Shown: in pieces, positions 9,425 to 46,549 of the stretch
Numbering within the stretch: the first letter of the stretch is position 1
Layout: the number at the start of each line of letters is the position of its first letter
UHGV virus genome: UHGV-0011358
From: a virus
Strand: one strand, 5' to 3'
DNA: 56,349 bases
Program-made: the position numbers and the translations under genes
Notes under the pieces: generated by a model
Database searches by the model: none
Told to the model about the DNA's origin: nothing
What the model saw: the letters and a program-made list of their open reading frames with translations, nothing else

Positions 9425-12400
9425 TTATTCTTCGCTTCCTGTGAACTGACTGACAAGCGCTTCAAGTTTTGCGATCCGCTCATCCATTGCGGCAATATTA
9501 GCTTTCAGGCTGGCGTTTTCCTCTTCCAGTTCTGTGACGCGGTTATCTGTTTCTCGTGCCACCTGGACAAGCAAACCAGTCACCGCCGCATAGTCAACAT
9601 TAAGGTAGCGTGTTTCTTCTCGTAGCTCGTTGCCGTCAACGGTCGGCCCCTGCAATTCATTACCGTAACGAGTAAACGATCCTACGGCTTCCGGTAGCGC
9701 CTCCATTACTTCCTGTGCAATAACGCCAGCATAAGGAAGGCCGTTTTCCTTGAGCGTGTAGGTGTACCCGTTCATTTTGCGGATTGATTCAGTGGCTTCA
9801 CCTATAACCTGAATGTTATCTTTAAGGTCGCGGTCAGATGATTGGTGAAGTGTCTGGCATGTGATATTACCGCTAACATCAAACATTTGACCTGATGATG
9901 TTTTTTGTGCATAAAACAGGTATCCGGCAGATGTTCCAACCTCAAAAACGTTTTGTCGATCACTTGACCCCCAGACCCTGATGCTAACTGGTAGTTCTGA
10001 ATTACCTGAATTAAGTAAAGCAAAACGACTGCCCGTCCCTGTTTGTTTTCTAATTACTAAATCGGCAGTTGAATTAACCTCATTTTTGTTAACGGTTAGC
10101 GCCTGTGCTGTAGCACCGTTGACAGTACCGCTTAGTAGTTGCACTGCGCCATCATCGCCATTTAACAGCACTTGAGCGCTGCTTCTGTGGTTTTTCAGGA
10201 ACAACATTTTGCCTGTGCTTTCCGATGTACCTACCGACCACGCCGAATTGGTTTCAGTGCTATCAACACCACGCACAGTACAATTCATCGCGCTATAATC
10301 TGACGTACTTCCAAGCACATCAATTCGCCCACCACCAGATTTTACAGGAGTATCAGTGGTTAACGACCTTACGTTTACATCCTGATTCCTTCCTGAAACA
10401 ACAACCTGACTCCATGCCGACCAATTGCCATTTTCATAATAGCGAACGTATATTTGTTTTGTGTCTGTGCCAACAAGGGTTTGCAAGTTTGTATAATCTG
10501 AATCCGTGATCTTACGAATTGACTCTACACGAAGCAAAAAGTTGCCGCCTACGCCGTCAGGCTTATTGGTAATATTTGCACCGCCTCCGGCACTTTTGCA
10601 TTGATAGTATTTAACTGATCCTTTATCTGAGGCCTTAATGGTCAGATCATTAAGATCAATAGTCAGGTCGCCAATGTCTTCAGGCTCGATTGCTCCCGAT
10701 ATACCTGCGTTAAATGTGGCAAGGTCAGAAAATGTTGTTTTACCGCCTACCGTTAACCCGCTATCGAGTTTTGCTTGTGTAATTACTTTGCTGTTTTTTG
10801 AGTGGTCAGAAGAATTACCAAAATACAAATCACCGTCACCAGCTATACCTAGGTATTTTTGATCAACATCATCAACCTTAAACCCAATGGACAAGTTTTT
10901 AATTGTGTTGTTGCTCGTTAAAACCAAAGGCGTATGCTGAGATCCTTTGATGCTTACCGTAGTGTTATCGGAACTGGTGCTTGTGTTTGCAAATTCTGCG
11001 GTGGCTGCGCTGATTTTGTAAGTTATTTTTAGATTGCGGGCCTCAACCCTCCCGTCGTGGCGAACAATAAAATCACCACTTGATTCACCTTTTGTGTTTT
11101 TCGCCCTGATGTGGATTTCGCCAAGTGATTCGTTGTTTTCAGGCGACCAAACAACGCCGCGCTCGCTTCCGTCGTTGTTCATGAACCACAGATGAGCGGT
11201 TCCTTTTGCTGATTTTAGCCTGATAGATGGCATTTCTTTCAATATATCAAGATCACCAGACATAACATCGCCGGATTTTTTCACCTGCGCATCGTTCGTT
11301 ACGTTGCCAAGTCCAACATCCGATTTCGACGGCTTGTTTTGGGTTCCGTATAGCTCATTAATGGCATAAGTGCCGCTGTTGAGTCCAGTATCGTTACCAG
11401 CGAAAATCTTGACCCTGGCCTTTTCGTATTCGATATTAATCGCTGACCACGTATCACCGCACCGAGAGAATACACTAGAACCGTGGTTATAATGGGTCGC
11501 CGTGCTTCCGGTAGGCTTATCGGCACGCCAGAAATGACCGCCTTTGTCACGCAGTGCTTTTAATAGTTCTGTATTGCTCATCTTGCCGTTTGTTGCTATC
11601 CCGCTACCGCCAAGACCGAAAGCGCCTGTAAGCATAGCATTAGAAAGGCCCAAATCTGCCTTGCTGGGTTTGTTTACCTGGTCGTAAATCCTTGCTGCTG
11701 GGCTTTCAATATATCCAGCGGGTGCGTCGGCTTGCTCAACAAATCCTTCAGGAATGTATAATTCCGTGTTGCCAGTCTGCGCCAGCACCGCTACTTTTGT
11801 GTTTTTAATATAAGATCGCTGGTAGCACCAGACCTCGATATAGCCGTCACCTTTAACCAGGCCGTAACACATTTGACCATTATTGGGAAGGTTTGGTGAA
11901 CCGAGTCGGCGAATACTTAAAAATTTAGATATATTTTCACTGGTTACTTCGCCTGTGTCGTTAAGACCTCGAGCGGAGATCTCTATAAAGTCAATATTCC
12001 CGTAACTTAAACCGTAGCCACCGCCATTTGTAACCATTAGCGTTAAGTGGCAGTCTGATGACTTTGGATCGCTAAGTTTAGCAATCTTAACGTAAGCGCC
12101 ATTACCGCTAGTTTTAACAGGCCAAGCACATTGGACCATTGGGCTGGTAAGCCTTCCCATTTGATTCAGATATTCTTGCGCCCTGTTCTCTGATGTTTTG
12201 GCGTTGGTTTCGCTTGTTTTCGCTGCCGTCTCACTTGCCTTAGCGTTGGTTTCTGATGTTTTCGCTGCCGTGGCGGATTTTGCAGCCGCTGTTTTTGACG
12301 CTTCTGCTGCGTTTTTGTCGGATCCTGTTTTTTGAGCGTTGGCGGTTGATTTGGCTGTCTCTGCGCGAATGTTGGTAAGAAGCTGATCCAACTGACCTTC

Positions 12401-13202: not shown

Positions 13203-16200
13203 TTATCCTGAGAATGAACCAGAACCGCGCGACACTATGACTGTCGGCGAATTTATATAAGCCCCCTTGTCATTTTGAGCAGATACCTTAATTTTAACTG
13301 TAACGCCCCTGCTGGTTACTGCTGCTGAATGCATAACAAGGCGCTCCGTGCCATCCAGTGCTAAACCTTTTGATGAACCGCCAATTGTTATTGTGCAACC
13401 ACCAAAACCCTTAACGTTAGCCATAACGCAGATATGTCGGCTATACGCTGCGTCAGATGTGTCATTGTATGTTATTACTTTTTCTAACGCCCCATCCCTT
13501 AACGTGCTAACGTCAGAACCTGTGTACATGTTTGCAACATCACCGATAAAGGTTTTCGCCTCAAGTGAACCGGTAAACTTGCCGCTGTCTGCATGTATTT
13601 CACCCCTTACAACAACGTTGTTAAATTCTGATGCGCCGCTTTGTGTTATCCTCCAACCATTGGAACCGGGGACGAAGTTTGCTGATTTAATTTCATTGAC
13701 AATTTTAGCCATAGTAATGGAGGCATCTGCAATTTTAGCTGTCCCTATTGATGCATCCTTAATAAATGCCTCTTTCACATACATTGCGCCGTTAGTGACA
13801 TAGAAGGGCGATGTATATGCGCCGTTTGCCGCCGTCATTAACATAAAGCGATCAACAAGGAAAATACACTGCGACTGAAAGTTAGTGCCGTCACCAGTAA
13901 GGCCAAGCGACATACCTGTAGCGTATTTTACGCCATTGCTATCTGTGGCGAGCTTGATTGAATATGTCGCATCAACATTACCCCTAAAGTCGGTTAACGC
14001 TTTAGATGTCGTCTCTATTGCCGTCTTGTTCCCGTTAACGGTCACTGTTAGCTGATCAATTTTCGTTGACAACGCCTCGTCTGCCGTAGCCATTGTCTGC
14101 GACCATTCTGTAATACTTGAGTTTACTGATTCGAAAGACGCTGAGATCTGGCTAAATTTTTCCGCGCTTGATTCCTCATGCGTAGAGAGCGCCGTCGACA
14201 CTTCAGATACTTTTGAGTTGATCGTACTGGTAAGCGATGCGCTAAGGCCGCTTATTGCGTCCGCGCGTGCTTTTTTTTCGTCGGCGATGGCTTTGTCCAT
14301 CCTGGTGACGTTGCTTGTCACTTTATTATCAAGCGTGCTGACACTTGCGCTAACTTCGCTGATAGCTTGTCCTCTGGCGCTTGTTTCGTCAGCAATTACC
14401 TGATCAAGACGGTTTACGCTTGCTTCAGTCTTCTTATCAAGATTAGTGATCGATGCGTTTACACCGCTAATGGCTTCAGCCGTTGCTTTTTTCTCTTCAG
14501 CGATAACGTTGTCAATACGGTCAATTTTCGCGTTGGTTTCTCTGATTCCTTTCTTGTATTGGGCTGAAAGAGTAACACGCGTGTTGGTTTGAGCGATTGA
14601 GTTATTGATAAGTGCAATAGATGCGTTTTGCAGGCTTGCTTTTGCCTGATTTATTTCGTCGCTGTTTTTGCCAACATTATTTTCAACAGTGCCAAGATTT
14701 GCGCTGAGGCCTGATATTGCCTGAGCGCGGGCGCTTGATTCATCGGCAATTGCCTGATCAAGACGCTTAACGCTGGCGTTTGTGCTGTTCTCAAGCGTTG
14801 TTAAGTCTGCTTTAACCTCTGTTATTGCGTCGCTTCTTGCCTTCGTTTCGTCTGATATTGCTTTATCAAGGCGGGAAACGCTGGCATCTGTTTTCTTATC
14901 AAGGCTGTCTATTGATGCCTTCACGCCGCTAACGGCCTGTGCGCGGGCACTGGCCTCGTCAGCGATTGCCTGATCCAGGCGTTTAACGCTGGCGTCAGTT
15001 TTCTTATCAAGTGCCGAGATACTTGCGTTAACGTCACTGACCGCCTGTGTGCGGGCGTTCGTTTCATCTGCAATAGCCTGATCAAGCCTATTGACGCTGG
15101 CATCCGTTTTCTTGTCGAGATTGCTTATTGAGGCGTTCACACCGTTAATAGCTTCAGCGCGGGCACTAGCCTCGTCAGCCACTGCGCGTTCCACACTGGA
15201 GATCTGACCTTTAAGGTTGGAATCCATCGTGTTCATTTCTGCCGTGATGGTTTTCAGTGATTCAGCCGTTGCTTTTTTCTCTTCAGCGATAACGTTGTCA
15301 ATACGGTCAATTTCCGCTTTCGTTTCCGTTCTGCCTTTTTTGTACTGGGCGGTAAGGGTAACGCGCGTGTTTGTCTGTGCAAGCGAGTTGTTGATAAGCG
15401 CCAATGACGCGTTTTGCAGGCTTGCTTTTGCTTGCGCCAGTTCGCTGCCAACTTTTTCGCTGGACACTTCTAATAGGTCAATCCTGGACTCATGCTGACC
15501 AATATCATCGGCGTTTTCCTTAACTTTTTTGTAAAGATCTTCCGTTTCTTTTTTAAGTGTATCGGTGTCAGCTTTTATTGTTCCCGTTTCTGTGATCAGG
15601 TTGTCAGTGTCAGTCCTTAAATCTTCAGTTACGTTCGTAAGGTTATCAGTTGTAGTTTTGAGGTTGTCAGTAGCTGTTTTCAGTTCTTCCGCAACACCTT
15701 CGATAACATCGGTGCGGTCGCCTAGATCTTTGATGTCACCAATCATTTCCTTGAACTGTTCCGACCCCATGACATCCTTCATCACGTAGTCACTGATTTC
15801 ATCAAAATTCTCTGTCGGCTTACCTGACGCCTCTACAAAGTCAGACACGCCAAAAGCATTGCGTGTGCGCACGTAAACGTAATAAGTATGGCCCGTGTTC
15901 ATTCCGCCGAACGTCCACTGATAACCACGTCCGGTATATTGTGCATTAGTGGGGACTAATGCCGGATTAGTGATTTGTGTTTCGCCAGCAAAATAGAATT
16001 CATAGCTTGTATCGCTGGTCAGAGTTGTTTTGCTGATTGGGTATACAGTAGCCTGAAATACGCCTGGTATCCAGTTAACACCAATTGGTTTTGAAGGTGC
16101 ACCAATAACGAGATCAACGATAGATTCCGCGCCTTTCATACCGGTATCATTGCGGGCGCGAACGCCTAAAGAGTATTGACCGCAATTCAGGCCATTAAAA

Positions 16201-18215
16201 TCATACCGGAATTCGGTCGTCTCATAACTGGCGACAACTTTGCTGTCTTCGTTATAAACACGTAATTCAAAGGTCAGGCGGTGAGTTGTGGTCTGCGTCA
16301 TCCACGACGCGGAGCACTGAACGGTTTCGGAACCAACATTCATTACCTTGAGGTTTTCAATGTTAGGAACACGGAAATGATTCAGCGTGTCGTTGTTGAT
16401 TTCGAAGACTGCGCCTTCATCAACTACGGCCTGTTTGTTAGGGTCGTGCTGTGCGGCTTCGATAGTGTATACGCTGTTATTTTCTGTTTCTGCTACGCTG
16501 GTGATCCTACATAAAACGGGTTTTGCTGCTTCAGTCGATACAGCAAAAACAGTGCCATTGCGAATCCATGCCGGGGCCGCAGCAAGGGTAATATTGTTTC
16601 CATTAACTCCGGTGATCTGGTGTTTTTTAAATTTACCATCGCTATCAAGTAAGCTGATGGTGTCACCAGCCGCGATATATTCAGAATCAACCTTGTCGAC
16701 CGTTATCACTTTGCCATTGTTCGCCACGATACGACCGCCTAAGCGAGCGCCTGCGCGGTTATTGTCGAGGATCTCGATGATATCCCCTGGTGTAAAGTGA
16801 ATGGCGTCACGGGCCATTTTAAACGTGAATTTTGACGGCTCGCGTTTTGCTGTTTCGATCAGCCATTTACCAGCGCGATAAGCCTGTCCGCGAGACGTGC
16901 ACCCGAACGCCTCTAGCGTGGTTTCGTTGTAGCCGTCGCGGGCGATTAGTTCATCGTCAGAAACGTATTCTTTTGACTGTTCCCAACCGTTACCCGGATC
17001 GGTCCAGGATACAATCACGGCGTTGTAGCACTCCGCGCGGGCAAGGCTCGAACGGGTGAATGCACCATCTACGACATTTGCGTTCGTGATAGTTGCAATC
17101 GGATCTTGTGGCGCATCAATCATCACTGTAAGACGTTGCCCGTCCCATAACGCAATACCACGGAACATGCCAGCAATGTTATCCAGTAGGTCGCGGGCGC
17201 TCATTTGCTCCGTAATGTAAGCGTTAAGCGTCATGCGAGGTTCAAGGCCACCATAGCCATCATCAACCAACTGATCGCAGTATTGGGAGAGCACGTACAA
17301 AGCGCCATCATCAACATCAATGTAACCAGCATGTCGAGCAAGCCCGAAGCGCTCGTTTTTAACCAGATACCGGAAAATCCACGCAGGGTTATTGGTGTAC
17401 GCTTTTTTGAATCCACCAAGCCATAAGCCCGAATATGTGCGCGTTTCTGTGTTGTAGTTATCAGGCACGTCAACAATCAGGCCGCGAAGATGATAGGTGC
17501 GGGTAGGTGTATCAGTGTACTGGTCATGGTCAATCACAGCGCCAGCTACAGCGGTATGAGGATAAGACAGATTATCGTCTATGATTTCGCTGTAACTACT
17601 CCACCGCGTATCATTCTGCAATAGATCGCTGTTGCTGTCTGCTGTTATGCGACGAATGCGAATATCAAACGGTTTTTCATCCGGCGCTTTGATAATGTGA
17701 GCTTCCAGATATTCACCGCTTTGTTTACCGGGGCCAATGTGTATATCTTTAATCAGCGACCATGTAGAAGATGATGACGGTTTAACGTCAACCATCAACA
17801 TAACGGATGTATTGTATTGATTGCCCTTGTCGTCTGACTGAACGAGAGCGTCAACACCAAGATTCAACCTGACGCGGGTAACGTTTGGATCTGAAACAGT
17901 CCTGATTATTGGCGTGTCGTGAGTTACCTTTGCGTTGACAATAACGGTTGACTCGATGGCATTAAAACCATTAATCGGCGATTGGTCAGCCGTGCCGTTT
18001 CGCCAGGCTATACTAATCCCCGGTATTGATGTATTCCCGTTTGCGTCAGTAACAGGCGTGTCATTAAGCATCACGTTATTCAGTGGTGCTTTCTGGTTTA
18101 CCGGACCATATATCGGCCCCTCACTGAGAATATCTAAGACACGATAAAACTGTTTATGATACAGGTTATCGTTCAATAATGTTGGTGTTTTGGCTTTGCC
18201 GCCGCCGCTACTCAT
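13203..18215 (-). CDS. J: central tail fiber / host specificity protein J
   Basis: 1670 aa; N-terminal two thirds align by eye with lambda J; has an added coiled-coil repeat insertion. Confidence 0.9.
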   Translation of the reverse strand: MSSGGGKAKTPTLLNDNLYHKQFYRVLDILSEGPIYGPVNQKAPLNNVMLNDTPVTDANGNTSIPGISIAWRNGTADQSPINGFNAIESTVIVNAKVTHDTPIIRTVSDPNVTRVRLNLGVDALVQSDDKGNQYNTSVMLMVDVKPSSSSTWSLIKDIHIGPGKQSGEYLEAHIIKAPDEKPFDIRIRRITADSNSDLLQNDTRWSSYSEIIDDNLSYPHTAVAGAVIDHDQYTDTPTRTYHLRGLIVDVPDNYNTETRTYSGLWLGGFKKAYTNNPAWIFRYLVKNERFGLARHAGYIDVDDGALYVLSQYCDQLVDDGYGGLEPRMTLNAYITEQMSARDLLDNIAGMFRGIALWDGQRLTVMIDAPQDPIATITNANVVDGAFTRSSLARAECYNAVIVSWTDPGNGWEQSKEYVSDDELIARDGYNETTLEAFGCTSRGQAYRAGKWLIETAKREPSKFTFKMARDAIHFTPGDIIEILDNNRAGARLGGRIVANNGKVITVDKVDSEYIAAGDTISLLDSDGKFKKHQITGVNGNNITLAAAPAWIRNGTVFAVSTEAAKPVLCRITSVAETENNSVYTIEAAQHDPNKQAVVDEGAVFEINNDTLNHFRVPNIENLKVMNVGSETVQCSASWMTQTTTHRLTFELRVYNEDSKVVASYETTEFRYDFNGLNCGQYSLGVRARNDTGMKGAESIVDLVIGAPSKPIGVNWIPGVFQATVYPISKTTLTSDTSYEFYFAGETQITNPALVPTNAQYTGRGYQWTFGGMNTGHTYYVYVRTRNAFGVSDFVEASGKPTENFDEISDYVMKDVMGSEQFKEMIGDIKDLGDRTDVIEGVAEELKTATDNLKTTTDNLTNVTEDLRTDTDNLITETGTIKADTDTLKKETEDLYKKVKENADDIGQHESRIDLLEVSSEKVGSELAQAKASLQNASLALINNSLAQTNTRVTLTAQYKKGRTETKAEIDRIDNVIAEEKKATAESLKTITAEMNTMDSNLKGQISSVERAVADEASARAEAINGVNASISNLDKKTDASVNRLDQAIADETNARTQAVSDVNASISALDKKTDASVKRLDQAIADEASARAQAVSGVKASIDSLDKKTDASVSRLDKAISDETKARSDAITEVKADLTTLENSTNASVKRLDQAIADESSARAQAISGLSANLGTVENNVGKNSDEINQAKASLQNASIALINNSIAQTNTRVTLSAQYKKGIRETNAKIDRIDNVIAEEKKATAEAISGVNASITNLDKKTEASVNRLDQVIADETSARGQAISEVSASVSTLDNKVTSNVTRMDKAIADEKKARADAISGLSASLTSTINSKVSEVSTALSTHEESSAEKFSQISASFESVNSSITEWSQTMATADEALSTKIDQLTVTVNGNKTAIETTSKALTDFRGNVDATYSIKLATDSNGVKYATGMSLGLTGDGTNFQSQCIFLVDRFMLMTAANGAYTSPFYVTNGAMYVKEAFIKDASIGTAKIADASITMAKIVNEIKSANFVPGSNGWRITQSGASEFNNVVVRGEIHADSGKFTGSLEAKTFIGDVANMYTGSDVSTLRDGALEKVITYNDTSDAAYSRHICVMANVKGFGGCTITIGGSSKGLALDGTERLVMHSAAVTSRGVTVKIKVSAQNDKGAYINSPTVIVSRGSGSFSG

Positions 18216-18228
18216 GGCTTTTCTCCTG

Positions 18229-18765
18229 TTAACTTACAACGTCTAAGGCGTCTTTGTTGTTGCTTGTGTCTATGCCTAACGATCCGACGTTTGAACCTAT
18301 TTTCATTTCACCCAACAGGATTGGCACTGGCCTGCCCTGTCCTACCTTGTTTTCAATGCTGGTGTAGGTGTTGTTCGTTATGGTGTTATCTTGTGCGCTT
18401 TCTGCTGATGTTTTTACCTTCATGTTGCGTGACATAAAGATTGAAAACGCAACACCAACAACTGAAACGCCAATCATGATCCAGCCAAGTACACCGATTT
18501 CTAAACCGCCAAGCCCACCCTCTACCACTGGCGCAATAATGACGGTAGTCCCATCCGGGTATTTACTATTAACCGCTGCTGGCGCGGTATTTTCGTCATA
18601 ATCTTTTCCGGCAATTCGTAAGCGCAAAGGGGTGCTTAAAAACGCCTTCTTGAATTCATAATTCTGCGCAACCAATAAGCTAAGCCCCTGCGCTGGTGTT
18701 TCAACGTTTAAACACACCTTGCCGTAATATCTTCGAAGATTGCCCGTAAATCTAAATTTGAGCAT
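18229..18765 (-). CDS. I: tail assembly protein I
   Basis: C-terminal PVPILLGEMKIGSNVGS matches the lambda I motif; position between K and J. Confidence 0.7.
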   Translation of the reverse strand: MLKFRFTGNLRRYYGKVCLNVETPAQGLSLLVAQNYEFKKAFLSTPLRLRIAGKDYDENTAPAAVNSKYPDGTTVIIAPVVEGGLGGLEIGVLGWIMIGVSVVGVAFSIFMSRNMKVKTSAESAQDNTITNNTYTSIENKVGQGRPVPILLGEMKIGSNVGSLGIDTSNNKDALDVVS

Positions 18766-19445
18766 TTGTCAGATCTCCATATTGAATGCGTTTGTCGAAC
18801 ATACGCGGGCCGCATTTGCTCGCGGCGGCTTAACAGTCCGGCATTGTCATGATGCAAAACAGTGTTATCGCCCAGGTAAATCATCGCGTGACATGGGTCA
18901 GCGCCTTTAAACGGCTGACGGATAATTACGTCACCTGGCTGAATACTTTGCGCGTCAACCATGAAAAACCCGTTCAATGGCAGGTTTTTTATGTACAGGT
19001 TTTCCCCACGCAGCCACCACCCATCGTGGCGCTCAAAGTCCGGTAGATCCACGCCGCAAAGGTGATAGGAGTCACGAAAAAGCGAGTAGCAGTCTGTTTT
19101 CCCGTGCTCAAATTTACGACCTAACAGGTGCGCTACCGGGCGGAATTTTCTTACCCTGCCACCGGAACATAAAAACCACGGTAGGCCGGAAATAACCTGC
19201 TGTTGTCGATCCCGTGCTGACAATACCAATGAATCGTCAGTATGGGAGTGAAAAACGGCTGTTATAACGCCTAATTCGTCGGCCTTGATATAATCGTCAG
19301 GCGAGATTTTAAAGCTGTTGTGAGGCGTTTCAGACACGTTTAAACACGGGTAAAAATAATCGTTATCTATCACCAGCCCGCATACTTCCTCGTCAGGGTG
19401 GGCCGCTGCATAGCGAATCATTTTATCTTCAATCGCCATAATCAA
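18708..19445 (-). CDS. K: tail assembly protein K (MPN and NlpC/P60 domains)
   Basis: 245 aa; lambda K-like by eye; gene order L-K-I-J. Confidence 0.8.
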   Translation of the reverse strand: MIMAIEDKMIRYAAAHPDEEVCGLVIDNDYFYPCLNVSETPHNSFKISPDDYIKADELGVITAVFHSHTDDSLVLSARDRQQQVISGLPWFLCSGGRVRKFRPVAHLLGRKFEHGKTDCYSLFRDSYHLCGVDLPDFERHDGWWLRGENLYIKNLPLNGFFMVDAQSIQPGDVIIRQPFKGADPCHAMIYLGDNTVLHHDNAGLLSRREQMRPAYVRQTHSIWRSDKCSNLDLRAIFEDITARCV

Positions 19446-20155
19446 CCCACCTTGCTGGATCCCGGGAAACAGGAAATTGGTAACGGATTAGGACGCGGAA
19501 AACGCAAACGGCAACCGCTTAGGCGGTGGCTGCATTTATCCAGCTTTGGATCACTGGTTGGCTCGTCTTTGTCAGTAGCTACGGGGCCGCCACTGTATCT
19601 GCAACCGTCGCCGCGATATTGCCACTGGCAAACGTCAGCGAGAATTGTGCGCCCAGGGATAACCGCTTTATCTGCATCAATTGGCGTTGACAGTTCATAT
19701 TGCACCTGGTCTGCTGTTTCTTCGCTCATCGCCTCAACGACGTAAAAAGATACAGCCTCAATAGATGGATCTGCATCTGGATTGCCGTTAGGGAAGTTAA
19801 CGGCGTCCAGGTATTTTACTTCCACCTGGCGGCGCGTAACTTTCATTCCTCGCAGGTCGTTGAAATCGTTATTCATCCCCGTAATGAGTCCGCCAATGTT
19901 GGCAACAACCATTTGCGGGCGCGAGTAAACACCTTCGTTTTTCATTTCGAAGCCAGTAGCCTCGATTGGGTAGCTGTTGTAAGTCACTCCCTTCCAGATA
20001 ACCGGGCCGTAATAGCCATTCGCGCCGGAATGGAAGCGGATAACCTCGCCACCCAGGGGCGTTAGGTCTAATTCAAACAAGTCAATTACTGCGCCGACTC
20101 CGGCATCGACGGAATCAATAATCATTTCTGTAGGTATGCTGCGCATTTTTTTCAC
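19442..20155 (-). CDS. L: minor tail protein L
   Basis: Strong by-eye match to lambda L (VEVKYLDAVNFPNGN, Cys-rich C-terminus). Confidence 0.9.
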   Translation of the reverse strand: MKKMRSIPTEMIIDSVDAGVGAVIDLFELDLTPLGGEVIRFHSGANGYYGPVIWKGVTYNSYPIEATGFEMKNEGVYSRPQMVVANIGGLITGMNNDFNDLRGMKVTRRQVEVKYLDAVNFPNGNPDADPSIEAVSFYVVEAMSEETADQVQYELSTPIDADKAVIPGRTILADVCQWQYRGDGCRYSGGPVATDKDEPTSDPKLDKCSHRLSGCRLRFPRPNPLPISCFPGSSKVG

Positions 20156-20275
20156 CTTGTCATTTTGTGATCGCTGTCACGCTAAATCATACCAAAACGG
20201 TTGATAGCGCTTTTTACAATATGTATATTGTACTCAAAAGGAAGCAGGGTTAACAAAATGGCGCGGAGGTGTGAG

Positions 20276-20431
20276 ATGGCTGATAAGGTGTGGAGGTTGA
20301 CGGTATTCCTGTCAGGCGGCAGGGAAATGACTGTAGCTCTGTATAAAGACGAAGGCGAGGCACTAACTGACGCGCTTTTACTTGCTGAAGATGACCGCGT
20401 TTTGGGATACAGGATCGAACCTGCCAAATAG
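20276..20431 (+). CDS. hypothetical small protein (moron island B)
   Basis: 51 aa from ATG 20276 with GGAGGT RBS; opposite strand to tail genes. Confidence 0.35.
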   Translation: MADKVWRLTVFLSGGREMTVALYKDEGEALTDALLLAEDDRVLGYRIEPAK

Positions 20432-20497
20432 GAGGTTAACAAAAAATGAAAAAAATACAGGTTAGACGTGTGGACTGATAAATGCGAATGGGAAAGC

Positions 20498-20797
20498 ATG
20501 GGGCTATTTGACACATTCGAATCAGCGCGTGATGAAGGTTGTGAATTGCTCCGCTGTTGGTCTAGTGCTCGTGATTATTATGTTATTCCGGTACAAGTGC
20601 AGGATAAGGTGGAAGAGATGAACCCGAAAGATATTAACTTTAACGTCAGTGTTGAATTTGCTGACTCTATGGATCAGTCTTGCCCTGGTGAAATACACGC
20701 AAAAGGTTTCCCTGCTGACGATCCAGAAGCAAAACGCGAATACGAAAAAGCTGCGAAAGACTTCTGCATAGATAACCTGGGCGCATTCGATAAATAA
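20498..20797 (+). CDS. hypothetical protein (moron island B)
   Basis: About 100 aa acidic ORF; start uncertain. Confidence 0.4.
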   Translation: MGLFDTFESARDEGCELLRCWSSARDYYVIPVQVQDKVEEMNPKDINFNVSVEFADSMDQSCPGEIHAKGFPADDPEAKREYEKAAKDFCIDNLGAFDK

Positions 20798-20806
20798 GGC
20801 GGCAAC

Positions 20807-21055
20807 ATGGGGAGGCGCAATCACGGCGATTATGTGTACACGTTGAAACAGGCCGCCCGCCTCATCGGTTATCATGAGCACGAATTTATTGATTTGCTGA
20901 TTGAGCGCGGGATACTGTACCAGGTCTGTTTAACGCTGTACCCAAAAGCGAAATACCTACAGGAAAAGTTATTTATCATCATGACGGACGAAAACCAGGT
21001 TAATCATTCATTCGTCACTGATAAGGGCGTTAATTATCTGCGTGATAACTTGTAG
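20807..21055 (+). CDS. hypothetical protein (moron island B)
   Basis: 82 aa ORF. Confidence 0.4.
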   Translation: MGRRNHGDYVYTLKQAARLIGYHEHEFIDLLIERGILYQVCLTLYPKAKYLQEKLFIIMTDENQVNHSFVTDKGVNYLRDNL

Positions 21056-21065
21056 GTGACAGATT

Positions 21066-21182
21066 ATGAAAATAGAAGTTTTGGTGCTAATAATAATGGG
21101 ATTGATAGTATTTGGCGTTCATGCTGTAGAACTGGACTGGAAAACGATAGCGGAAAATATAGCATTAATGGAAATGGAATAA
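21066..21182 (+). CDS. small hydrophobic peptide (moron island B)
   Basis: 38 aa with one predicted TM segment; AGGTGA RBS; terminator follows. Confidence 0.35.
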   Translation: MKIEVLVLIIMGLIVFGVHAVELDWKTIAENIALMEME

Positions 21183-21188
21183 CAATAA

Positions 21189-21213
21189 CCCCGCTTCTCG
21201 CGGGGTTGTGTTT
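21189..21213. terminator. rho-independent terminator
   Basis: CCCCGC-TTCT-CGCGGGG hairpin then T-rich tract. Confidence 0.5.
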
Positions 21214-21409
21214 ATACGCCATCAACCAAAAATAAAACCTCCTTCCCTTCCCGGGATCTACACCCCACGTACCCATCACCAACGTCGTGAAGATACCATA
21301 TATCGCCGTTGTCAGCTTTTACAGTAAGGTCGTTGATCTCATAGTCGTCAAACAATGTAAAAGCGTAAGTTTTGTCAACTACACAAGTCCCGTACATAAC
21401 AACCCCCAT
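21212..21409 (-). CDS. hypothetical small protein downstream of M
   Basis: 65 aa ORF abutting the M stop. Confidence 0.3.
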   Translation of the reverse strand: MGVVMYGTCVVDKTYAFTLFDDYEINDLTVKADNGDIWYLHDVGDGYVGCRSREGKEVLFLVDGV

Positions 21410-21762
21410 TAGCCAACAACTTGTTCAAACGTTGCGTTTAGCGTGTACACAGGCCCGTCTTTGGTCATGCTCCAGCTACGGCAAACGAAAAGCCTTTGCA
21501 CCCCATCCATCGAAGGCGTCCAGTAGAAAGCATCGACAGCGCCGCGCGCCCTCAAAAATGCTTCAGCCTGGATCGCCACGTTTCCACCATCACCACATCC
21601 CGCGCTACTGCCTTTGAAAACCAGGGTATAACTATCAAGCAACGTGTTAATCCCTTTCGCCTGGCGCTGTTCATAACCATCACCAAGTTTAACGACAGAC
21701 ACATTTGGTTCCCTGGTCACGCTGTAGCTTCTTTGCGGCGTCCATCTGAAAACTTCTGGCAT
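21409..21762 (-). CDS. M: minor tail protein M
   Basis: 117 aa; VKLGDGYEQR and C-terminal FEQVV match lambda M by eye. Confidence 0.8.
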   Translation of the reverse strand: MPEVFRWTPQRSYSVTREPNVSVVKLGDGYEQRQAKGINTLLDSYTLVFKGSSAGCGDGGNVAIQAEAFLRARGAVDAFYWTPSMDGVQRLFVCRSWSMTKDGPVYTLNATFEQVVG

Positions 21763-21932
21763 GATTCCCCCTATAAGTTACATATTGCATACATCTTTAC
21801 GCGCTTCTACGCGAAAAATGAGAAATTCATCACAAGAATTATAACCAGTTTACAAAATGGCTTCACATAAGGCGTGACAAGATGTATATAGTAAGCAAGA
21901 AGAAAAAGCAGTACCGACAAAGGGGGGACAAC

Positions 21933-22088
21933 ATGGAACGCTATATGGTTGTGATGCTGAACAAAGCATTCGAACAGGTGGAAGTTGCGATTGTGAAGGG
22001 CTTTGATGATGCATTCAAATACGGTCAATTCATGATGAATGCAAAAGAAGATGAATACCGTGATTTCTTCCTGAAAGTGGTCAGCTAA
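21933..22088 (+). CDS. hypothetical small protein (moron island C)
   Basis: 51 aa; strong G-rich RBS. Confidence 0.4.
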   Translation: MERYMVVMLNKAFEQVEVAIVKGFDDAFKYGQFMMNAKEDEYRDFFLKVVS

Positions 22089-22106
22089 TGGATTGTGGGG
22101 TGTGTT

Positions 22107-22361
22107 ATGAAATTGGTGGCGATTGGTAAAAACCTGAAAGCACAGAAAAACGCACAGGACCGGATCATCAAAAAGGGCAAGGCTTTATTAAATGCTTTCC
22201 TGAAAAAAGAGGCCAACCCCAAAAAATTACGCGATGGCTACGGTTATAAATTTGACATCAACCCCGATTGGCGGTTATTCAGCGAAGATTTAAAGATGTG
22301 GTTAATTATTGACCACCTGGAATATAACAGGCACTGTGGGGTGAAAGGCGCTCACAAGTGA
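22107..22361 (+). CDS. hypothetical protein (moron island C)
   Basis: 84 aa basic ORF. Confidence 0.4.
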   Translation: MKLVAIGKNLKAQKNAQDRIIKKGKALLNAFLKKEANPKKLRDGYGYKFDINPDWRLFSEDLKMWLIIDHLEYNRHCGVKGAHK

Positions 22362-22392
22362 CACGGATTTGAATGTTGCGGAGGAAAACAAA

Positions 22393-22563
22393 ATGAAAAA
22401 TCCGGCAAATAAAAGCAACGTAAAACGCATAGCATGGGTGCTAAAATATATGGATAGTAAAGGGGATACATATACATGCCCATTTTTTAGGTATACTGAC
22501 GCGGTATTTGCCAGAAGTGTACACGGAGGGAAAATTGAAAGAGGATATACAAGATTTGAGTAA
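22393..22563 (+). CDS. hypothetical small protein (moron island C)
   Basis: 56 aa; GGAGGA RBS. Confidence 0.4.
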   Translation: MKNPANKSNVKRIAWVLKYMDSKGDTYTCPFFRYTDAVFARSVHGGKIERGYTRFE

Positions 22564-22601
22564 ATTTATTCACGAAATCAATAACATGATGAAGGTTTAT
22601 A

Positions 22602-22781
22602 ATGATTATTCACGAGACTGAAGAATGTAGAAGGATTGATCTTAGTGTTGAAGATGATGGAAGATTATGGATCGTTAGCGACTGCGAGATGATTGTAATA
22701 GACAAAAAGCAAGCTGACGAACTGATAAGCGCATTACAGCTTTATGCAAACGGCGAATTTAAAAATGATGAAATTGAATAA
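22602..22781 (+). CDS. hypothetical small protein (moron island C)
   Basis: 59 aa ORF not in the track; terminator follows. Confidence 0.35.
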   Translation: MIIHETEECRRIDLSVEDDGRLWIVSDCEMIVIDKKQADELISALQLYANGEFKNDEIE

Positions 22782-22787
22782 AAATAA

Positions 22788-22810
22788 CCCCGGCATTGCG
22801 CCGGGGTTTT
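22788..22810. terminator. bidirectional rho-independent terminator
   Basis: CCCCGGC-ATTGC-GCCGGGG hairpin flanked by T-runs on both strands. Confidence 0.6.
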
Positions 22811-22812
22811 GA

Positions 22813-25800
22813 TTATTTGCGGCGCGGTTGCAGCATTCCGCCCGGTCTGGATGATTCGCGGTGTATCAGGCCCATGCAGATCTTTTCCATATCCTGCTGT
22901 AGTTTTTTGGCGTCCTCATCACTCCATCCATTTTGTGGGTAAACGCTAATCGGTGCGTTTATACTAACGTTACCACCACCCGCACCACCAATGTCGCGAT
23001 TTGGTATTACCCTGCCGTTGTCACCAGGAATCATATACTGTTCACCGTTTCGAGATTGGAAGATCTCTGGCTTACCGTGTTCCCCTACGCGATACAGGCT
23101 ACCACCGTTAACCGCACCGCCGTTATAACGAGCGCCAGCCAGTCCAAGCGTTTTGGCGGCAGCGACGCCAGTAGTAAGCCCAGTAAGTCCAGTGGCCCCA
23201 GCGCCGCCCATCGTGGCAACGTTTGCCAGGTATGCAGGAGTAGCCCACGCTGATGATAACGCTGCCGCCTCTGCCAGTGCTTTGGTTGTTGCCATAGTTC
23301 TTGCTGTATCACCAATCAATTGCTGCTTGACCCACTCAGTACCCATTTGAACAATCGTACCAATCACGGAGGAAAGGATTGTATTGCCAATGTTAGCGAT
23401 CGCCTGTTGCCAATTTTGAGTACCGTTAATCAGGCCGACAAGCGCGTTAGTTGCGGATCCGCTCATTGCATCAACAGCATCGCCTAACAGTTGGTTGGTC
23501 AATGACTGCGCCTTATACCTCTCCCACTGAAGTGATAGCATTTCCCTCTCATGCGCTTTTTCTTGCTCCCTCATATATTGCTCTGTAGCGCCTAAATCTG
23601 TGAGCATCTGCTTGCGAACCGCCCATTCATTCATCGCCTGCTGAATTGGGTCTAGTTGCCCGCGTAGTTGTAGCTCTTTGTTTACCAGATTATCCCAGCT
23701 AGCCTGACGTTTGCGTTGTTCCTCGGTTCCAATTAATTCTTTCCATGCCTTATTATATTGTTCCGCGCTTATTTTGCCGCTTTTTAATGCTGCATTTAGC
23801 GCATCCTGATCCTCTTTTAATTTCCGTTGCGCGGCGGCTTCTACATTGTATTTATCTGCAACATTCTGGCCCCGTTTCTCAAGCTCTTTGCGCAGGCGTT
23901 CAGCCTCTTTTAGATGTTTTTTCTCCTCGCTTTCGCCAGTTTTTTTCCCATGACTGGCCTTTCTTTCAGCTTCGGCGCGTTTCTGCTCGGTGTCGTATGC
24001 TTTGGTCATTGTAGCCATGTATTTTTCATACGCTTCCCCGGTCAGGTTTGCTTTCTCAGCCTCACGCTTAAACCCATCAATCGCCTTTTCCCTGCTGGCT
24101 GTTTTGGAGTCGAGTTTTGCCAGCTCCAGGCGGCGGTTTGCCAGATTCATTAATTCTTGCTGATCTGCGTTAAGTGCTGCTGAAGCGTGTTGCGTTGCTG
24201 CTGCTGCGCGTTCTGCTTCTGTGGTGATTCTTCCGTATGCATCCGCTACCAACCCCAATGAAGTGGCAACGGTCTTCATTAGCGGATCTGTATCCTGCAT
24301 AAGCAGAATATATTTGCGCTGCATTTGATTAAGGCGGTCGAGAATATCCTCACGCTGCGCCTCTTCCCTGGTCAGGCGGGCTGTGATTTCCTGATTAGCT
24401 TTCGATAGGTTGGCGTAAGCGCGTGACCCCTCCTCTGCTTTCTCCAGTGCCTGTTTATTCAGTTCCAGCGCCTGCGTGTCCTGGTCAATCTGTTTGTTGA
24501 GACTGGCAACGTCTTCCTCTAACTGACCCATTGATATTTGTAGTTTATCTGCACCAGCCAGCTTAGCCGCCTTACTCATTCGTTCCAGTGATTCGGTACT
24601 AACGTCCACTGAATCGGCAAGGTTGCGGTTTGCCTCTGCCGTTTGATCTACGTGATCTACATATGCTGTCAACCCGTAAACAGCAAGCATTAACGCGCCA
24701 GGGATACCACCAATCGCACCCAGAGTAGCGCTAAACGCTGTTTTTAGTAGCCCTGCATTAGCCGCCGCCGCAGTGTGGGCCGCAGCAAGGCGCTGCTCTG
24801 CCGCAGTAAGGGCGTTTGATGCCGCTGTGTTCTGTGCTTTGGCTACAGCCAATTCTTTCAGTGTCTGAACTTCGAATTTTGTTCCGGCATTTGCCGCAGC
24901 ATAAGCCTGCGCCTCTCTCAACCTTGCCGCCGCCGCCGCTACTGATTGCCGTGCTGATACCACCTGAGCGTTAGCTAGCGCCAATTCACTCTGAGCGGCC
25001 TGCCGTGCCGCTGCCGTTTGTGCCCTGGTCGCCTGAGCGTTAGTTAATACCTCTGCTGTTGCAGCTACGAATTTATTTACCACTCTGCCACCCATCACAG
25101 TGGCAATGCCAATAAATGCAGTAGCTATTTCGTTAAGGTTTTCTGACAGGGTTACAACTGCCGAATTAAAAGCACCAATCCCGCCCATAATTGACGAATT
25201 GCTGCCGAAAAATTTAGCTGCGTTGTTGCCTGCAACAGTGAAAGCCTCCTGCATAGTTGGGGTGAGTTTAGAAAACTCAGCATCAACCTCCGCTTTCATT
25301 TCCTTAAGGGCTTTAATGATAGCTTCACGGGTGATTTTCCCTTCTGCTGCCATCTTGCGCATTTCCGCTGACGATACGCCCAGTGATTTAGCCAAACCCT
25401 CTGACAGCCTGGTGGCGTTTTCTGTAACGGAGTTAAATTCATCGCCATTCAAAACACCTTTGGCGAGGGATTGACCCAACTGACGGATCCCGCCTTCTGC
25501 TTCAGCGGCAGAAGCGCCAGAAATGCGGAATGTTTTGTTAATGGTTTCAACCATATCACCAAGTGCTTTCGTCGATAAACCAGCGTCGCGCGTCGAGCGC
25601 TCTAATTTACCGTAAAGATCTGCTGTAGCATCAAGATCGCTTCGTGAATTTTGCGCGATCTGAAATACACGCTGATTAACGTCTGCCAGTGATTCACCAG
25701 CACGAACGCTATTGATTAGCCTGTTATTCACCTCCTGCCAGGCGTTTGCATACTCAATGATTTTTTTTGCTGCCATTGCAGCACCCAGGGCACTGGCAAT

Positions 25801-25968
25801 CGAGGATAGCTTTGACAGTGACTTACTTGCCTGAGTGGCGGCACTATCCACGCGCTCCAAATCCTTTTCCATTTTGCCAGTTGCGCGATCTACCTCGCGC
25901 TGAACAGTCAGAAGCTGACCCGTTTTTGCATCAACCTCGTAATAAATTGTGCCTAAATTTGTTGACAT
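22813..25968 (-). CDS. H: tail tape measure protein
   Basis: 1051 aa, coiled-coil rich, Gly-rich C-terminus; sits upstream of M-L-K-I-J. Confidence 0.9.
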   Translation of the reverse strand: MSTNLGTIYYEVDAKTGQLLTVQREVDRATGKMEKDLERVDSAATQASKSLSKLSSIASALGAAMAAKKIIEYANAWQEVNNRLINSVRAGESLADVNQRVFQIAQNSRSDLDATADLYGKLERSTRDAGLSTKALGDMVETINKTFRISGASAAEAEGGIRQLGQSLAKGVLNGDEFNSVTENATRLSEGLAKSLGVSSAEMRKMAAEGKITREAIIKALKEMKAEVDAEFSKLTPTMQEAFTVAGNNAAKFFGSNSSIMGGIGAFNSAVVTLSENLNEIATAFIGIATVMGGRVVNKFVAATAEVLTNAQATRAQTAAARQAAQSELALANAQVVSARQSVAAAAARLREAQAYAAANAGTKFEVQTLKELAVAKAQNTAASNALTAAEQRLAAAHTAAAANAGLLKTAFSATLGAIGGIPGALMLAVYGLTAYVDHVDQTAEANRNLADSVDVSTESLERMSKAAKLAGADKLQISMGQLEEDVASLNKQIDQDTQALELNKQALEKAEEGSRAYANLSKANQEITARLTREEAQREDILDRLNQMQRKYILLMQDTDPLMKTVATSLGLVADAYGRITTEAERAAAATQHASAALNADQQELMNLANRRLELAKLDSKTASREKAIDGFKREAEKANLTGEAYEKYMATMTKAYDTEQKRAEAERKASHGKKTGESEEKKHLKEAERLRKELEKRGQNVADKYNVEAAAQRKLKEDQDALNAALKSGKISAEQYNKAWKELIGTEEQRKRQASWDNLVNKELQLRGQLDPIQQAMNEWAVRKQMLTDLGATEQYMREQEKAHEREMLSLQWERYKAQSLTNQLLGDAVDAMSGSATNALVGLINGTQNWQQAIANIGNTILSSVIGTIVQMGTEWVKQQLIGDTARTMATTKALAEAAALSSAWATPAYLANVATMGGAGATGLTGLTTGVAAAKTLGLAGARYNGGAVNGGSLYRVGEHGKPEIFQSRNGEQYMIPGDNGRVIPNRDIGGAGGGNVSINAPISVYPQNGWSDEDAKKLQQDMEKICMGLIHRESSRPGGMLQPRRK

Positions 25969-26215: not shown

Positions 26216-26346
26216 TTGGGTTGGTTAAATGGACACAATCAAAACGGTTATAGATGTATATATTACAGCATGGTTAGCATTTAATGTGATGGCTGTACTG
26301 GTGCTGGCAATGACAACCGAAGATAAACGTAACTGAGAGGTGTATC

Positions 26347-26649
26347 ATGGAACTGGTAATTTGCTTCATCGGATTTATCGCAACTATGGTTGTGGCTCAG
26401 AAAAAACATCTGAATATGCTCCTGGCATTCTTTGGTGCGCTGATTTGCTGGCCTGCTGTATTGATTTACGCACTGTGCGTTAACAAAAGGATGTTCAAAC
26501 ACTACGTTGATGCAGTGACTTTTGTAAGCATGGAGTTCCCGAACGCAACTGACGTACAGAAAGCACAGGTCGCAACTTACATTTACGATAACGTGTACGA
26601 TATTCACGACTTGGATGAGGCAAGATGCAGATTTGCAGCATACAAATAA
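26347..26649 (+). CDS. small integral membrane protein (moron island D)
   Basis: 100 aa with two hydrophobic helices; opposite strand to tail genes; own terminator. Confidence 0.55.
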   Translation: MELVICFIGFIATMVVAQKKHLNMLLAFFGALICWPAVLIYALCVNKRMFKHYVDAVTFVSMEFPNATDVQKAQVATYIYDNVYDIHDLDEARCRFAAYK

Positions 26650-41167: not shown

Positions 41168-41557
41168 TTAAAATTCTGCACCAGGTAAGCTACGCGCTTT
41201 ATTTACCGCATCGTGTTTTAACGATAAACCAGCGTGATAATTCATAATCCCCATATTACCAACCGGTATTTCATTATTTTCTGCCTTTATTCTTAACAAC
41301 TGGTTTTTAGTGAAGATCCTGTCTCCATCAGTGATATATAACCAGTCGCCGCGCTTACCAACAACAACATGAGATCTGCCTAAGCTGTCTTTAAATTCAT
41401 AATTGCAGAAAACATCACCTTTAGGAACTTCAACAAAACAGCACGCAATGAACTTATTGCTTTTCATGATTTTGCCCATCCGCCTTTCTGTGCTCATATA
41501 TAACAAAACGGCGCTGCCTGAACAATGCCATTTCGTATACATTGTGATACTAGTCAC
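41168..41557 (-). CDS. hypothetical protein (cargo block)
   Basis: 129 aa ORF; start uncertain. Confidence 0.4.
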   Translation of the reverse strand: MTSITMYTKWHCSGSAVLLYMSTERRMGKIMKSNKFIACCFVEVPKGDVFCNYEFKDSLGRSHVVVGKRGDWLYITDGDRIFTKNQLLRIKAENNEIPVGNMGIMNYHAGLSLKHDAVNKARSLPGAEF

Positions 41558-41578
41558 ATTTTGCGCAATTAACTTTTA

Positions 41579-46348: not shown

Positions 46349-46549
46349 TAATGCTCTCTCCTTTTCAGGTGATTTCTACGCATTTCAGCGCTGCCGGATT
46401 TTTAAAGAGCATTTTGTTTGCTTGAAGTATACAAAATGGATACACCAGAACAAGGCGAAAAGCGCCATTATGTGATCCATATCACACAATGACGCCATTT
46501 TGTAAACTTCAGTCCGGTAAAACGCTGGCGTGGTTAGCTAAAAGCTGTT

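Follow-up and report, generated by a model that had tools for sequence, protein, structure and literature searches.

The subject of this report is island B, a group of four small plus-strand genes located between the minor tail protein genes L and M of the virus genome UHGV-0011358. The whole stretch of 56,349 nucleotides (nt) that was analysed is referred to as the window, and on the evidence of its sequence it is a coliphage or prophage of the mEp021 type (mEpimmI group). Island B is very probably an autonomous conserved operon, and it is a moron-type cassette of an atypical kind, comprising four genes, being fixed and having an unremarkable composition. The overall reading that we favour, at slightly below an even chance, is that of a fixed accessory operon served by the host RNA polymerase, with CRP input and a KilAC domain protein as the effector. 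The four open reading frames (ORFs), their control elements and the flanking genes were mapped as follows.

19442-20155, minus strand: L, minor tail protein gene flanking the island (PF05100, E 3.7e-72)
20166-20181, no strand assigned: CRP-type palindrome TGTGATCGCTGTCACG, one mismatch to TGTGA-N6-TCACA (TGTGA-N6-TCACG)
20201-20229, plus strand: predicted sigma-70-type promoter, TTGATA-17-TATATT, with the -10 element at 20224-20229
20276-20431, plus strand: ORF1, 51 amino acids (aa), isoelectric point 4.65, soluble, with GGAGG 6 nt upstream
20446-20478, plus strand: relic of the native start of ORF2, with ATG, then A7 (20449-20455), and a 10-codon stub ending in TGA
20468-20797 (GTG start, 109 aa) or 20498-20797 (ATG start, 99 aa), plus strand: ORF2 body
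20807-21055, plus strand: ORF3, 82 aa, a stand-alone KilAC/ANT domain
21066-21182, plus strand: ORF4, 38 aa, predicted single-pass membrane peptide with an acidic C-terminal tail
21187-21207, both strands: bidirectional intrinsic-terminator hairpin AACCCCGC-TTCTC-GCGGGGTT, serving the island (plus) and the transcript of M and the 65-aa gene (minus)
21212-21409, minus strand: 65-aa gene outside the island operon (phrog_3249, E 1.5e-22), with its start overlapping the M stop codon
21409-21762, minus strand: M, minor tail protein gene flanking the island (PF05939, E 1.9e-29)

The four ORFs occupy the L-M gap without overlapping and run antisense to the tail genes, as the initial annotation of this DNA had described. 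The gaps between them measure 9-15 nt, and a Shine-Dalgarno sequence precedes each gene. The comparison set consisted of 45 viral contigs together with annotated phage and E. coli loci, and all counts out of 56 given below refer to the related loci having both L and ORF3. ORF1 and ORF2 were found in nearly all of these loci, and the order of the ORFs was identical across all related loci. The ratios of nonsynonymous to synonymous substitution rates (dN/dS, pooled Nei-Gojobori) were 0.27 for ORF1, 0.24 for ORF2, 0.11 for ORF3, and 0.16 for ORF4, the last computed over 34 loci, compared with 0.05 for L and 0.08 for M. Since the ORFs recur in related loci and their dN/dS values are low, we conclude from these sequence comparisons that all four are real protein-coding genes under purifying selection. 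The same selection data rule out that the island is a decaying, non-functional remnant. The initial count of four genes thus stands insofar as all are conserved, with the reservation that ORF2 has lost its native start in the window. The picture of a gap holding only island ORFs had to be amended, since it also contains a fifth conserved gene, the 65-aa gene on the minus strand. This gene was seen in every related locus with tail genes and had a dN/dS of 0.13; it is an extra gene of the tail operon, situated between M and the terminator, without a counterpart in lambda. In lambda, M and L are directly adjacent.

Conservation in related phages had been implied as the yardstick for the island, and it was found both in the mEp phages and in prophage loci. 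The 1.35 kb around island B shared 88-90% nucleotide identity with mEp554, mEp013, mEp044, mEp021, mEp010, mEp515, and MagusPhagus, and prophage matches to the same region were present in 35 of 5426 complete E. coli genomes, with 83-95% nucleotide identity. All of these named phages carry the cassette (genes mEp021_71 to _74 in mEp021) at the same L-M position and in the same ORF order, and their ORF3 proteins have 94-99% amino-acid identity to that of the window. Their ORF2 is intact (116-117 aa), whereas that of the window is frameshifted. mEp021 has an additional 75-aa gene between ORF2 and ORF3, and MagusPhagus lacks ORF4. Patchiness was limited to the 3′ part near ORF4, with the ORF1-ORF3 core being present in essentially all relatives. 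Some short public contigs carrying the island were considered as possible transcript-derived assemblies, which was rejected because they reach into L or the 65-aa gene and are thus ordinary fragments. A search of Rfam returned no RNA family in 19900-23000. The mEpimmI phages are described as Nus-dependent and non-lambdoid, and in one collection of phages from human faeces, those of the mEp021 type reportedly occurred as frequently as the lambdoid ones (PMC11893012).

The cassette was then placed against known accessory elements. Morons, in the concept of Hendrix and Juhala, are extra genes with their own promoter and terminator, such as HK97 gp15 or lambda lom and bor. Island B resembles the morons of lambdoid phages in its insertion between normally adjacent genes, here the L and M that neighbour each other in lambda, in its own terminator, and in its promoter-like site, a predicted element matching the sigma-70 consensus at 10 of 12 positions and conserved in all loci. 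It differs from them in comprising four genes, in being convergent, in its universal presence in the phage group, and in the lack of a compositional anomaly. The GC content of the island is 0.46, compared with 0.42-0.51 in the flanks, and neither a distinct composition nor a patchy presence of the kind seen in morons was found. The GC skew turns positive over 20001-21000. The proposal that such an island is a typical site for cargo was not supported if variable cargo is meant, since ORF1-ORF3 are essentially universal, the GC content is like that of the flanks, and a KilAC-like gene belongs to the mEpimmI core; the published core gene list includes a "KilAC-like antirepressor" and makes no statement on the function of the island (PMC11893012). 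Its two specific forms were not supported either. No defence or anti-defence family of PADLOC matched any island B protein at E <= 1, and the known lysogenic-conversion gene of mEp021, ipe (gp29), lies elsewhere, in the early region.

The promoter score of 10/12 was the best in a 3.1-kb scan. Its -10 element and spacing were invariant among the relatives, and the most diverged lineage, L053, keeps TTGATT-17-TATATT. The intergenic region between L and ORF1 as a whole was conserved above the level of the island genes. The CRP-type palindrome upstream of the promoter was present in 56/56 related loci, with both arms intact in 54 and a perfect sequence in 5, and the six bases at its centre occurred in at least 12 forms. 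Its centre lies 61.5-63.5 bp from the inferred transcription start across loci, and about 62.5 bp upstream of it in the window. In L053, the palindrome is perfect (TGTGATCTGCATCACA) despite changes in the bases around it and in the promoter spacer. At the class I CRP promoter lac P1, the site is centred at -61.5. Island B shares with this promoter class the distance of about 62 bp, as measured to the inferred start, the TGTGA-N6-TCAC core, the preserved arms, and the free spacer. It is unlike a classic CRP promoter in that similar palindromes recur elsewhere in the mEp021-type phage, maybe for another factor. An 18-bp palindrome lying over the -10 element (TACAATAT-GT-ATATTGTA) was considered as an operator and discarded, as it is not retained in L053.

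At the other end, the island does stop at a terminator, as had been claimed from the first inspection of the DNA. The hairpin at 21187-21207 has a folding energy of -23.3 kcal/mol (z = -4.35), and 0 of 200 shuffled sequences folded as well. The stem CCCCGC/GCGGGG was retained in 52/56 loci with varying loops, and the mEp021 record annotates the terminator on both strands. mEp021 encodes a Q-type late regulator, whose action would account for the passage of late transcription through the bidirectional terminators on either side of the islands.

These elements can be combined into a regulatory model. The host RNA polymerase would transcribe island B from its own promoter, independently of the Q-type late regulator, which would permit expression in the lysogen. 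Bound at the class I position, CRP with cyclic adenosine monophosphate (cAMP) would activate the island, so that a shortage of glucose would raise its expression. In the lytic cycle, polymerase modified by Q would read through the flanking terminators on the opposite strand, and the convergent transcription would damp the island. We regard expression of island B outside the late programme with CRP input as an evenly balanced proposition.

The recurrence of the palindrome bears on an alternative in which the genes of island B would be lytic-cycle accessory genes that serve host takeover, being activated upon infection or induction and silent in the lysogen. The window contains 9 palindromes of the TGTGA-N6-TCACA type, compared with 1.7 expected, and no shuffle reached 9; three of them are perfect. 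Copies lie at 41543-41558, 46471-46486, and 49840-49855, as well as at 9440, 19319, 36298, and 55458. Each perfect palindrome follows an ACAAAAYGG motif, with exactly 40 nt from start to start. This 9-mer was found 15 times, compared with 2 expected, including copies at 20253, 21852, 26011, 46431, 46495, and 49800, and some copies overlap start codons. It adjoins the -35 element in island B, in the form of the close variant ACCAAAACGG, and in the neighbouring island C. The early region of mEp021 contains near-matches to the palindrome, one of them within an annotated terminator. Since both motifs occur at several early-region sites, a phage-wide regulator could read them, as the lytic alternative would have it, and island B behaves as a core feature of the group instead of variable cargo (PMC11893012). 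However, because the island and the late operon are convergent, interference from late transcription is to be expected, and the island promoter resembles an ordinary host sigma-70 promoter with no repressor operator recognised nearby. The only good candidate for a repressor operator in the window lies in the immunity region. We consider this alternative unlikely.

The favoured reading of a host-transcribed accessory operon takes its effector from ORF3. Here, the initial statement that the functions are unknown needs revision: while ORF1, ORF2, and ORF4 gave no informative match, ORF3 is a KilAC domain (PF03374). It scored 29.9 bits against this profile (cutoff 25.3; E 7e-7), with residues 10-82 matching profile positions 23-105 of 108, and its homologues carry a precomputed PF03374 annotation. 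The identity of ORF3 among the loci was 89-100%. Its close family forms seven 90%-identity clusters, all of 82 aa and, where source names were given, all from E. coli, and the most divergent close member (74% identity) occupies the same L-M position. The nearest relatives outside this family are the KilAC parts of larger genes from Vibrio, Cronobacter, and Hafnia phages, with 32-38% identity and annotations as antirepressor, Rha-family, or DNA-binding proteins. A sequence search of solved structures with ORF3 gave nothing useful.

Given the naming of this family, a classical antirepressor module similar to P22 immI had to be weighed, in which ORF3 would bind the CI-like repressor of the phage and trigger or tune induction, with ORF1 and ORF2 controlling ORF3. 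PF03374 is named for antirepressors, the mEp021 gene is labelled "putative antirepressor", and the outside relatives just described include antirepressor or Rha-family annotations. The ant module of P22 is located inside the late region, which also fits. Antirepressors controlled by LexA are found in the Gifsy and N15 phages. No LexA box was detected anywhere in the window, which counts against an antirepressor and, in particular, means that ORF3 is not one of the LexA-controlled Gifsy/N15 type. In addition, neither a family nor a fold associated with DNA binding was seen in ORF1 and ORF2, and ORF3 consists of the KilAC domain without any N-terminal AntA/B, Bro-N, Rha, or KilA-N domain, whereas the characterised antirepressors that PMC9043618 describes have such a domain. 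In AriS of the Listeria phage phi10403S, the control of the phage's own genes was mapped to the N-terminal domain and not to KilAC (PMC9043618). The antirepressor interpretation is therefore quite unlikely in our estimation.

Published work on KilAC domains suggests another role for ORF3 within the accessory operon. The KilAC domain of AriS alone inhibits the SOS response, probably via RecA (PMC9043618). CreP, a single-domain KilAC protein, has a bacteriostatic effect and makes cells filament, and FtsZ co-purifies with it weakly (bioRxiv 10.1101/2024.01.05.574328), while the KilA C-domain of Gp07 from the Staphylococcus phage Phi11 leads to filamentation in E. coli (PMC5944126). AriS and Phi11 Gp07 share the PF03374 KilAC domain with ORF3, but are two-domain proteins of Gram-positive phages. 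CreP of Acinetobacter baylyi ADP1, which was compared by its published description, is a stand-alone KilAC of about 80-100 aa like ORF3. ORF3 has the TxKG motif (as TDKG) and an AARLIG stretch where the CreP paper describes AKxLxL. The repressor of CreP is a CRISPR guide-like RNA in a cas locus, whereas ORF3 takes third place in the operon of a phage. Because KilAC domains elsewhere inhibit SOS or cell division, ORF3 is by analogy the likely effector, and it would act by binding a host protein. That this KilAC protein acts on host SOS or division is, as an argument from such analogies, doubtful.

A more specific version is that ORF3 would be a prophage-expressed, cAMP-CRP-gated inhibitor of RecA/SOS, as the KilAC domain of AriS is in Listeria, with ORF1 and ORF2 as a new two-protein modulator. 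We rate this analogy-based proposal as improbable. Most mEpimmI phages are not UV-inducible despite the LexA-like S24 self-cleavage domain in their repressor (PMC11893012). If true, a carbon-gated SOS inhibitor could explain this non-UV-inducibility and would link prophage induction to the carbon status of the host, and the ORF1/ORF2 modulator would be a previously undescribed pair of beta-beta-alpha-beta domains.

ORF1 and ORF2 are related to each other. Residues 6-51 of ORF1 align to residues 4-50 of ORF2 (hhalign E 6e-5, probability 65%), so by sequence ORF1 and the N-domain of ORF2 are paralogous; the fold predicted for the latter is beta-beta-alpha-beta. ORF1 matched phrog_29559 (E 7e-25) and ORF2 matched phrog_38567 (E 5e-41), both of them PHROGs of "unknown function". 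An in-frame ATG at 20259 lies upstream of ORF1, and since its frame is inconsistent among the relatives, the 51-aa form was taken as the real one. The RefSeq name "transporter" for ORF1 homologues is unsupported, as the protein has 51 aa, is acidic, and has no hydrophobic or transmembrane segment; the name looks like a propagated annotation error. The ORF2 family comprises 63 homologue clusters, for which the source names given were all E. coli or uncultured phage. An exhaustive profile search yielded 15 hits in 1.84 billion representative proteins, and consequently the family appears essentially confined to mEpimmI-type phages.

ORF2 is built of two modules. The C-module (ADSMDQSCPGEIHAKGFPADDPEAKREYEKAAKDFCIDNLGAFDK) is acidic and nearly invariant, while the N-half is variable, with dN/dS values of 0.17 and 0.30, respectively. 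In the AlphaFold2 model, residues 1-50 form the beta-beta-alpha-beta unit with a predicted local distance difference test score (pLDDT) above 90, and residues 55-116 have a pLDDT of 45-60. The C-module, to which the model assigns no confident fold, may be a segment that docks onto a partner. A natural fusion of an ORF1-like domain to ORF2 was found in one lineage (P0047, 172 aa), whose model shows two beta-beta-alpha-beta domains followed by the tail. This fusion suggests that ORF1 and ORF2 act jointly, and the two would probably pair via their paralogous domains. A stand-alone homologue of the C-module, P0122, has 56 aa and the pattern DSMDQxCPGExHxKGxP. It lies at 5001-5171 of L056, an ENA metagenome contig with a Mu-like portal gene, among small unknown genes. 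This phage is unrelated to the mEp021 type, so the C-module is an independent mobile unit.

In relatives, ORF2 starts with ATG and A6 (or ATG-CAAAAA) and encodes 116 aa with the N-terminus MKKYRLDVW. Comparison of the window (ATGAAAAAAATACAGG, A7) with the near-identical intact viral contig L007 (ATGAAAAAATACAGG, A6) revealed a +1 frameshift. The native ATG at 20446 is thereby out of frame, and the in-frame starts left are the GTG at 20468 and the ATG at 20498. Since the native start is lost, the ORF2 copy of the window may be hypomorphic. In L008 and L009, this run of A has slipped independently by -1, and it could be a mutational hot spot, subject to phase variation, or a hot spot of sequencing errors.

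Remote-homology and structure searches, which had been recommended for each ORF, delivered the KilAC assignment of ORF3 and the ORF1/ORF2 paralogy, and no informative fold match. Pfam, NCBIfam, and PADLOC held no match for ORF1 or ORF2. Foldseek against viral models gave none at E <= 1e-3, the matches being small uncharacterised phage proteins only, some of them DUF7336. A similarity of ORF2 to concatenated RecA chains among solved structures (E 0.01) was dismissed as chance, because no single stretch was significant and the match disappeared with the family profile. Hits of the ORF2 profile in the long repeat proteins P0124, P0125, and P0128 were likewise set aside as summed short-motif matches (e.g. 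HAKGxPADDxEAKR) and not homology; the repeats bearing this motif presumably resemble OmpA-like domains. Gene 1 of island C was considered as a third ORF1 paralogue, and both BLASTP and hhalign were negative.

The module structure of ORF2 is the starting point for a reading of the island as a toxin-antitoxin-like cassette, in which the KilAC protein would act as the bacteriostatic toxin, the C-tail of ORF2 would neutralise it, and ORF1 would be the third partner. CreP offers a precedent for a lone KilAC toxin, ORF2 combines a folded N-domain with a conserved C-tail of low model confidence directly upstream of ORF3, and the adjacent island C has a ParE-like toxin preceded by a 51-aa gene. Nevertheless, no toxin-antitoxin or defence model matched island B, including those of type II, and the N-domains of ORF1 and ORF2 have no recognised DNA-binding fold. 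The stand-alone C-module homologue occurs in another phage without a KilAC neighbour, and frameshifted ORF2 alleles persist in the window and in L008/L009, which would be awkward for an essential antitoxin. We thus assign this cassette a very low probability.

ORF4, which had been described as a 38-aa membrane peptide, is borne out as such by a Kyte-Doolittle maximum of 2.85 over 17 residues; residues 5-21 form one predicted transmembrane helix. The peptide is conserved under purifying selection. A C-terminal variant of 45 aa occurs in mEp554 and mEp021. Nothing significant was found for ORF4 in Pfam, NCBIfam, PADLOC, or PHROGs. Towards its 3′ side the island has a swap zone, in which optional genes of 26, 58, 67, and 77-93 aa occur, and some relatives have additional small membrane peptides there. 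Tail-region morons of HK97 encode membrane exclusion proteins. Island B might by the same token serve superinfection exclusion or defence at the membrane in the manner of HK97 gp15, with ORF4 as the effector, a conserved single-pass peptide accompanied in some relatives by the further membrane peptides of the same zone. The loci themselves argue otherwise, since ORF4 is missing in about one third of them while ORF1-ORF3 stay, and no PADLOC or PHROG match was obtained. In the mEpimmI group, experiments have attributed exclusion to Lpp-type lipoproteins whose genes lie outside the island (PMC11893012). This makes a membrane-level function of the island as a whole very improbable.

Several observations weigh against the favoured reading of a CRP-responsive accessory operon with a KilAC effector. 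Its composition relative to the flanks bears no signature of recent acquisition. The transcription start near 20236, from which the class I distance is counted, was inferred from the -10 element alone by placing it 7 nt downstream. Because the palindromes are over-represented phage-wide, their reader may be encoded by the phage. The PF03374 score of ORF3 is modest at 29.9 bits, and the KilAC analogies come from distant proteins in other hosts. No KilAC-like gene was found among the neighbours of the stand-alone C-module P0122, so a partnership between ORF2 and KilAC is without comparative support, and fold searches with the island proteins brought up nothing beyond small alpha/beta hits of a generic kind.

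If the KilAC protein damps SOS or division in lysogens, island B would influence the timing of prophage induction in the gut; if it does not, island B is one more small accessory operon. The analysis provides a checkable regulatory model, with the CRP-type site and Q read-through, and a candidate effector. The island genes themselves were already known, since the deposited records of mEp021 and its relatives annotate them, for the most part as hypothetical proteins. Judged by the literature that was searched, the new elements are the CRP-type site with its conservation pattern, the ORF1/ORF2 paralogy and fusion, the two-module structure of ORF2 with the frameshift in the window, and the link of a lone KilAC domain to published KilAC activities.

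The tail operon of mEp021-type phages is interrupted by three backward-facing gene islands in total. The remaining tail genes and the mapped parts of island C, which lies between M and the tape-measure gene at 21819-22808 on the plus strand, are the following.

13203-18215, minus strand: J, tail gene
18229-18765, minus strand: I, tail gene
18708-19445, minus strand: K, tail gene encoding NlpC/P60 plus JAB
21933-22088, plus strand: island C gene of 51 aa
22107-22361, plus strand: island C gene for a ParE-like toxin-domain protein (PF24732, E 7e-12)
22786-22808, both strands: bidirectional terminator of island C
22813-25968, minus strand: tape-measure protein, tail gene

Two more small ORFs belong to island C, whose content has the look of a toxin-antitoxin pair within the tail operon. 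The promoter regions of islands B and C are alike, that of island C having a CRP-like site, TGAGAAATTCATCACA, at 21819-21834, followed by TTCACA-17-TATATA. The third plus-strand island, at 26229-26649 just upstream of the tape-measure gene, encodes a 35-aa protein and a 100-aa hydrophobic protein, and its GC skew is positive too. Within the host-specificity gene J, four to five tandem repeats of 108 nt (36 aa) were observed at 14322-15179, in a coiled-coil-like C-terminal part. A 34-nt repeat (TGCATACATCTTTACGCGCTTCTACGCGAAAAAT) occurs at 21786-21819 and 34762-34795 with 88% identity. Each copy is located at the start of a structural gene on the minus strand or slightly upstream of it, the two genes being M and that at 33379-34770, and the repeat is a possible late-operon signal. 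The window ends (56280-56349) in iteron-like direct repeats (GGTAGTGTCACAGAGTCACTGGG), which lie within or after a replication-type gene and probably mark a replication origin.

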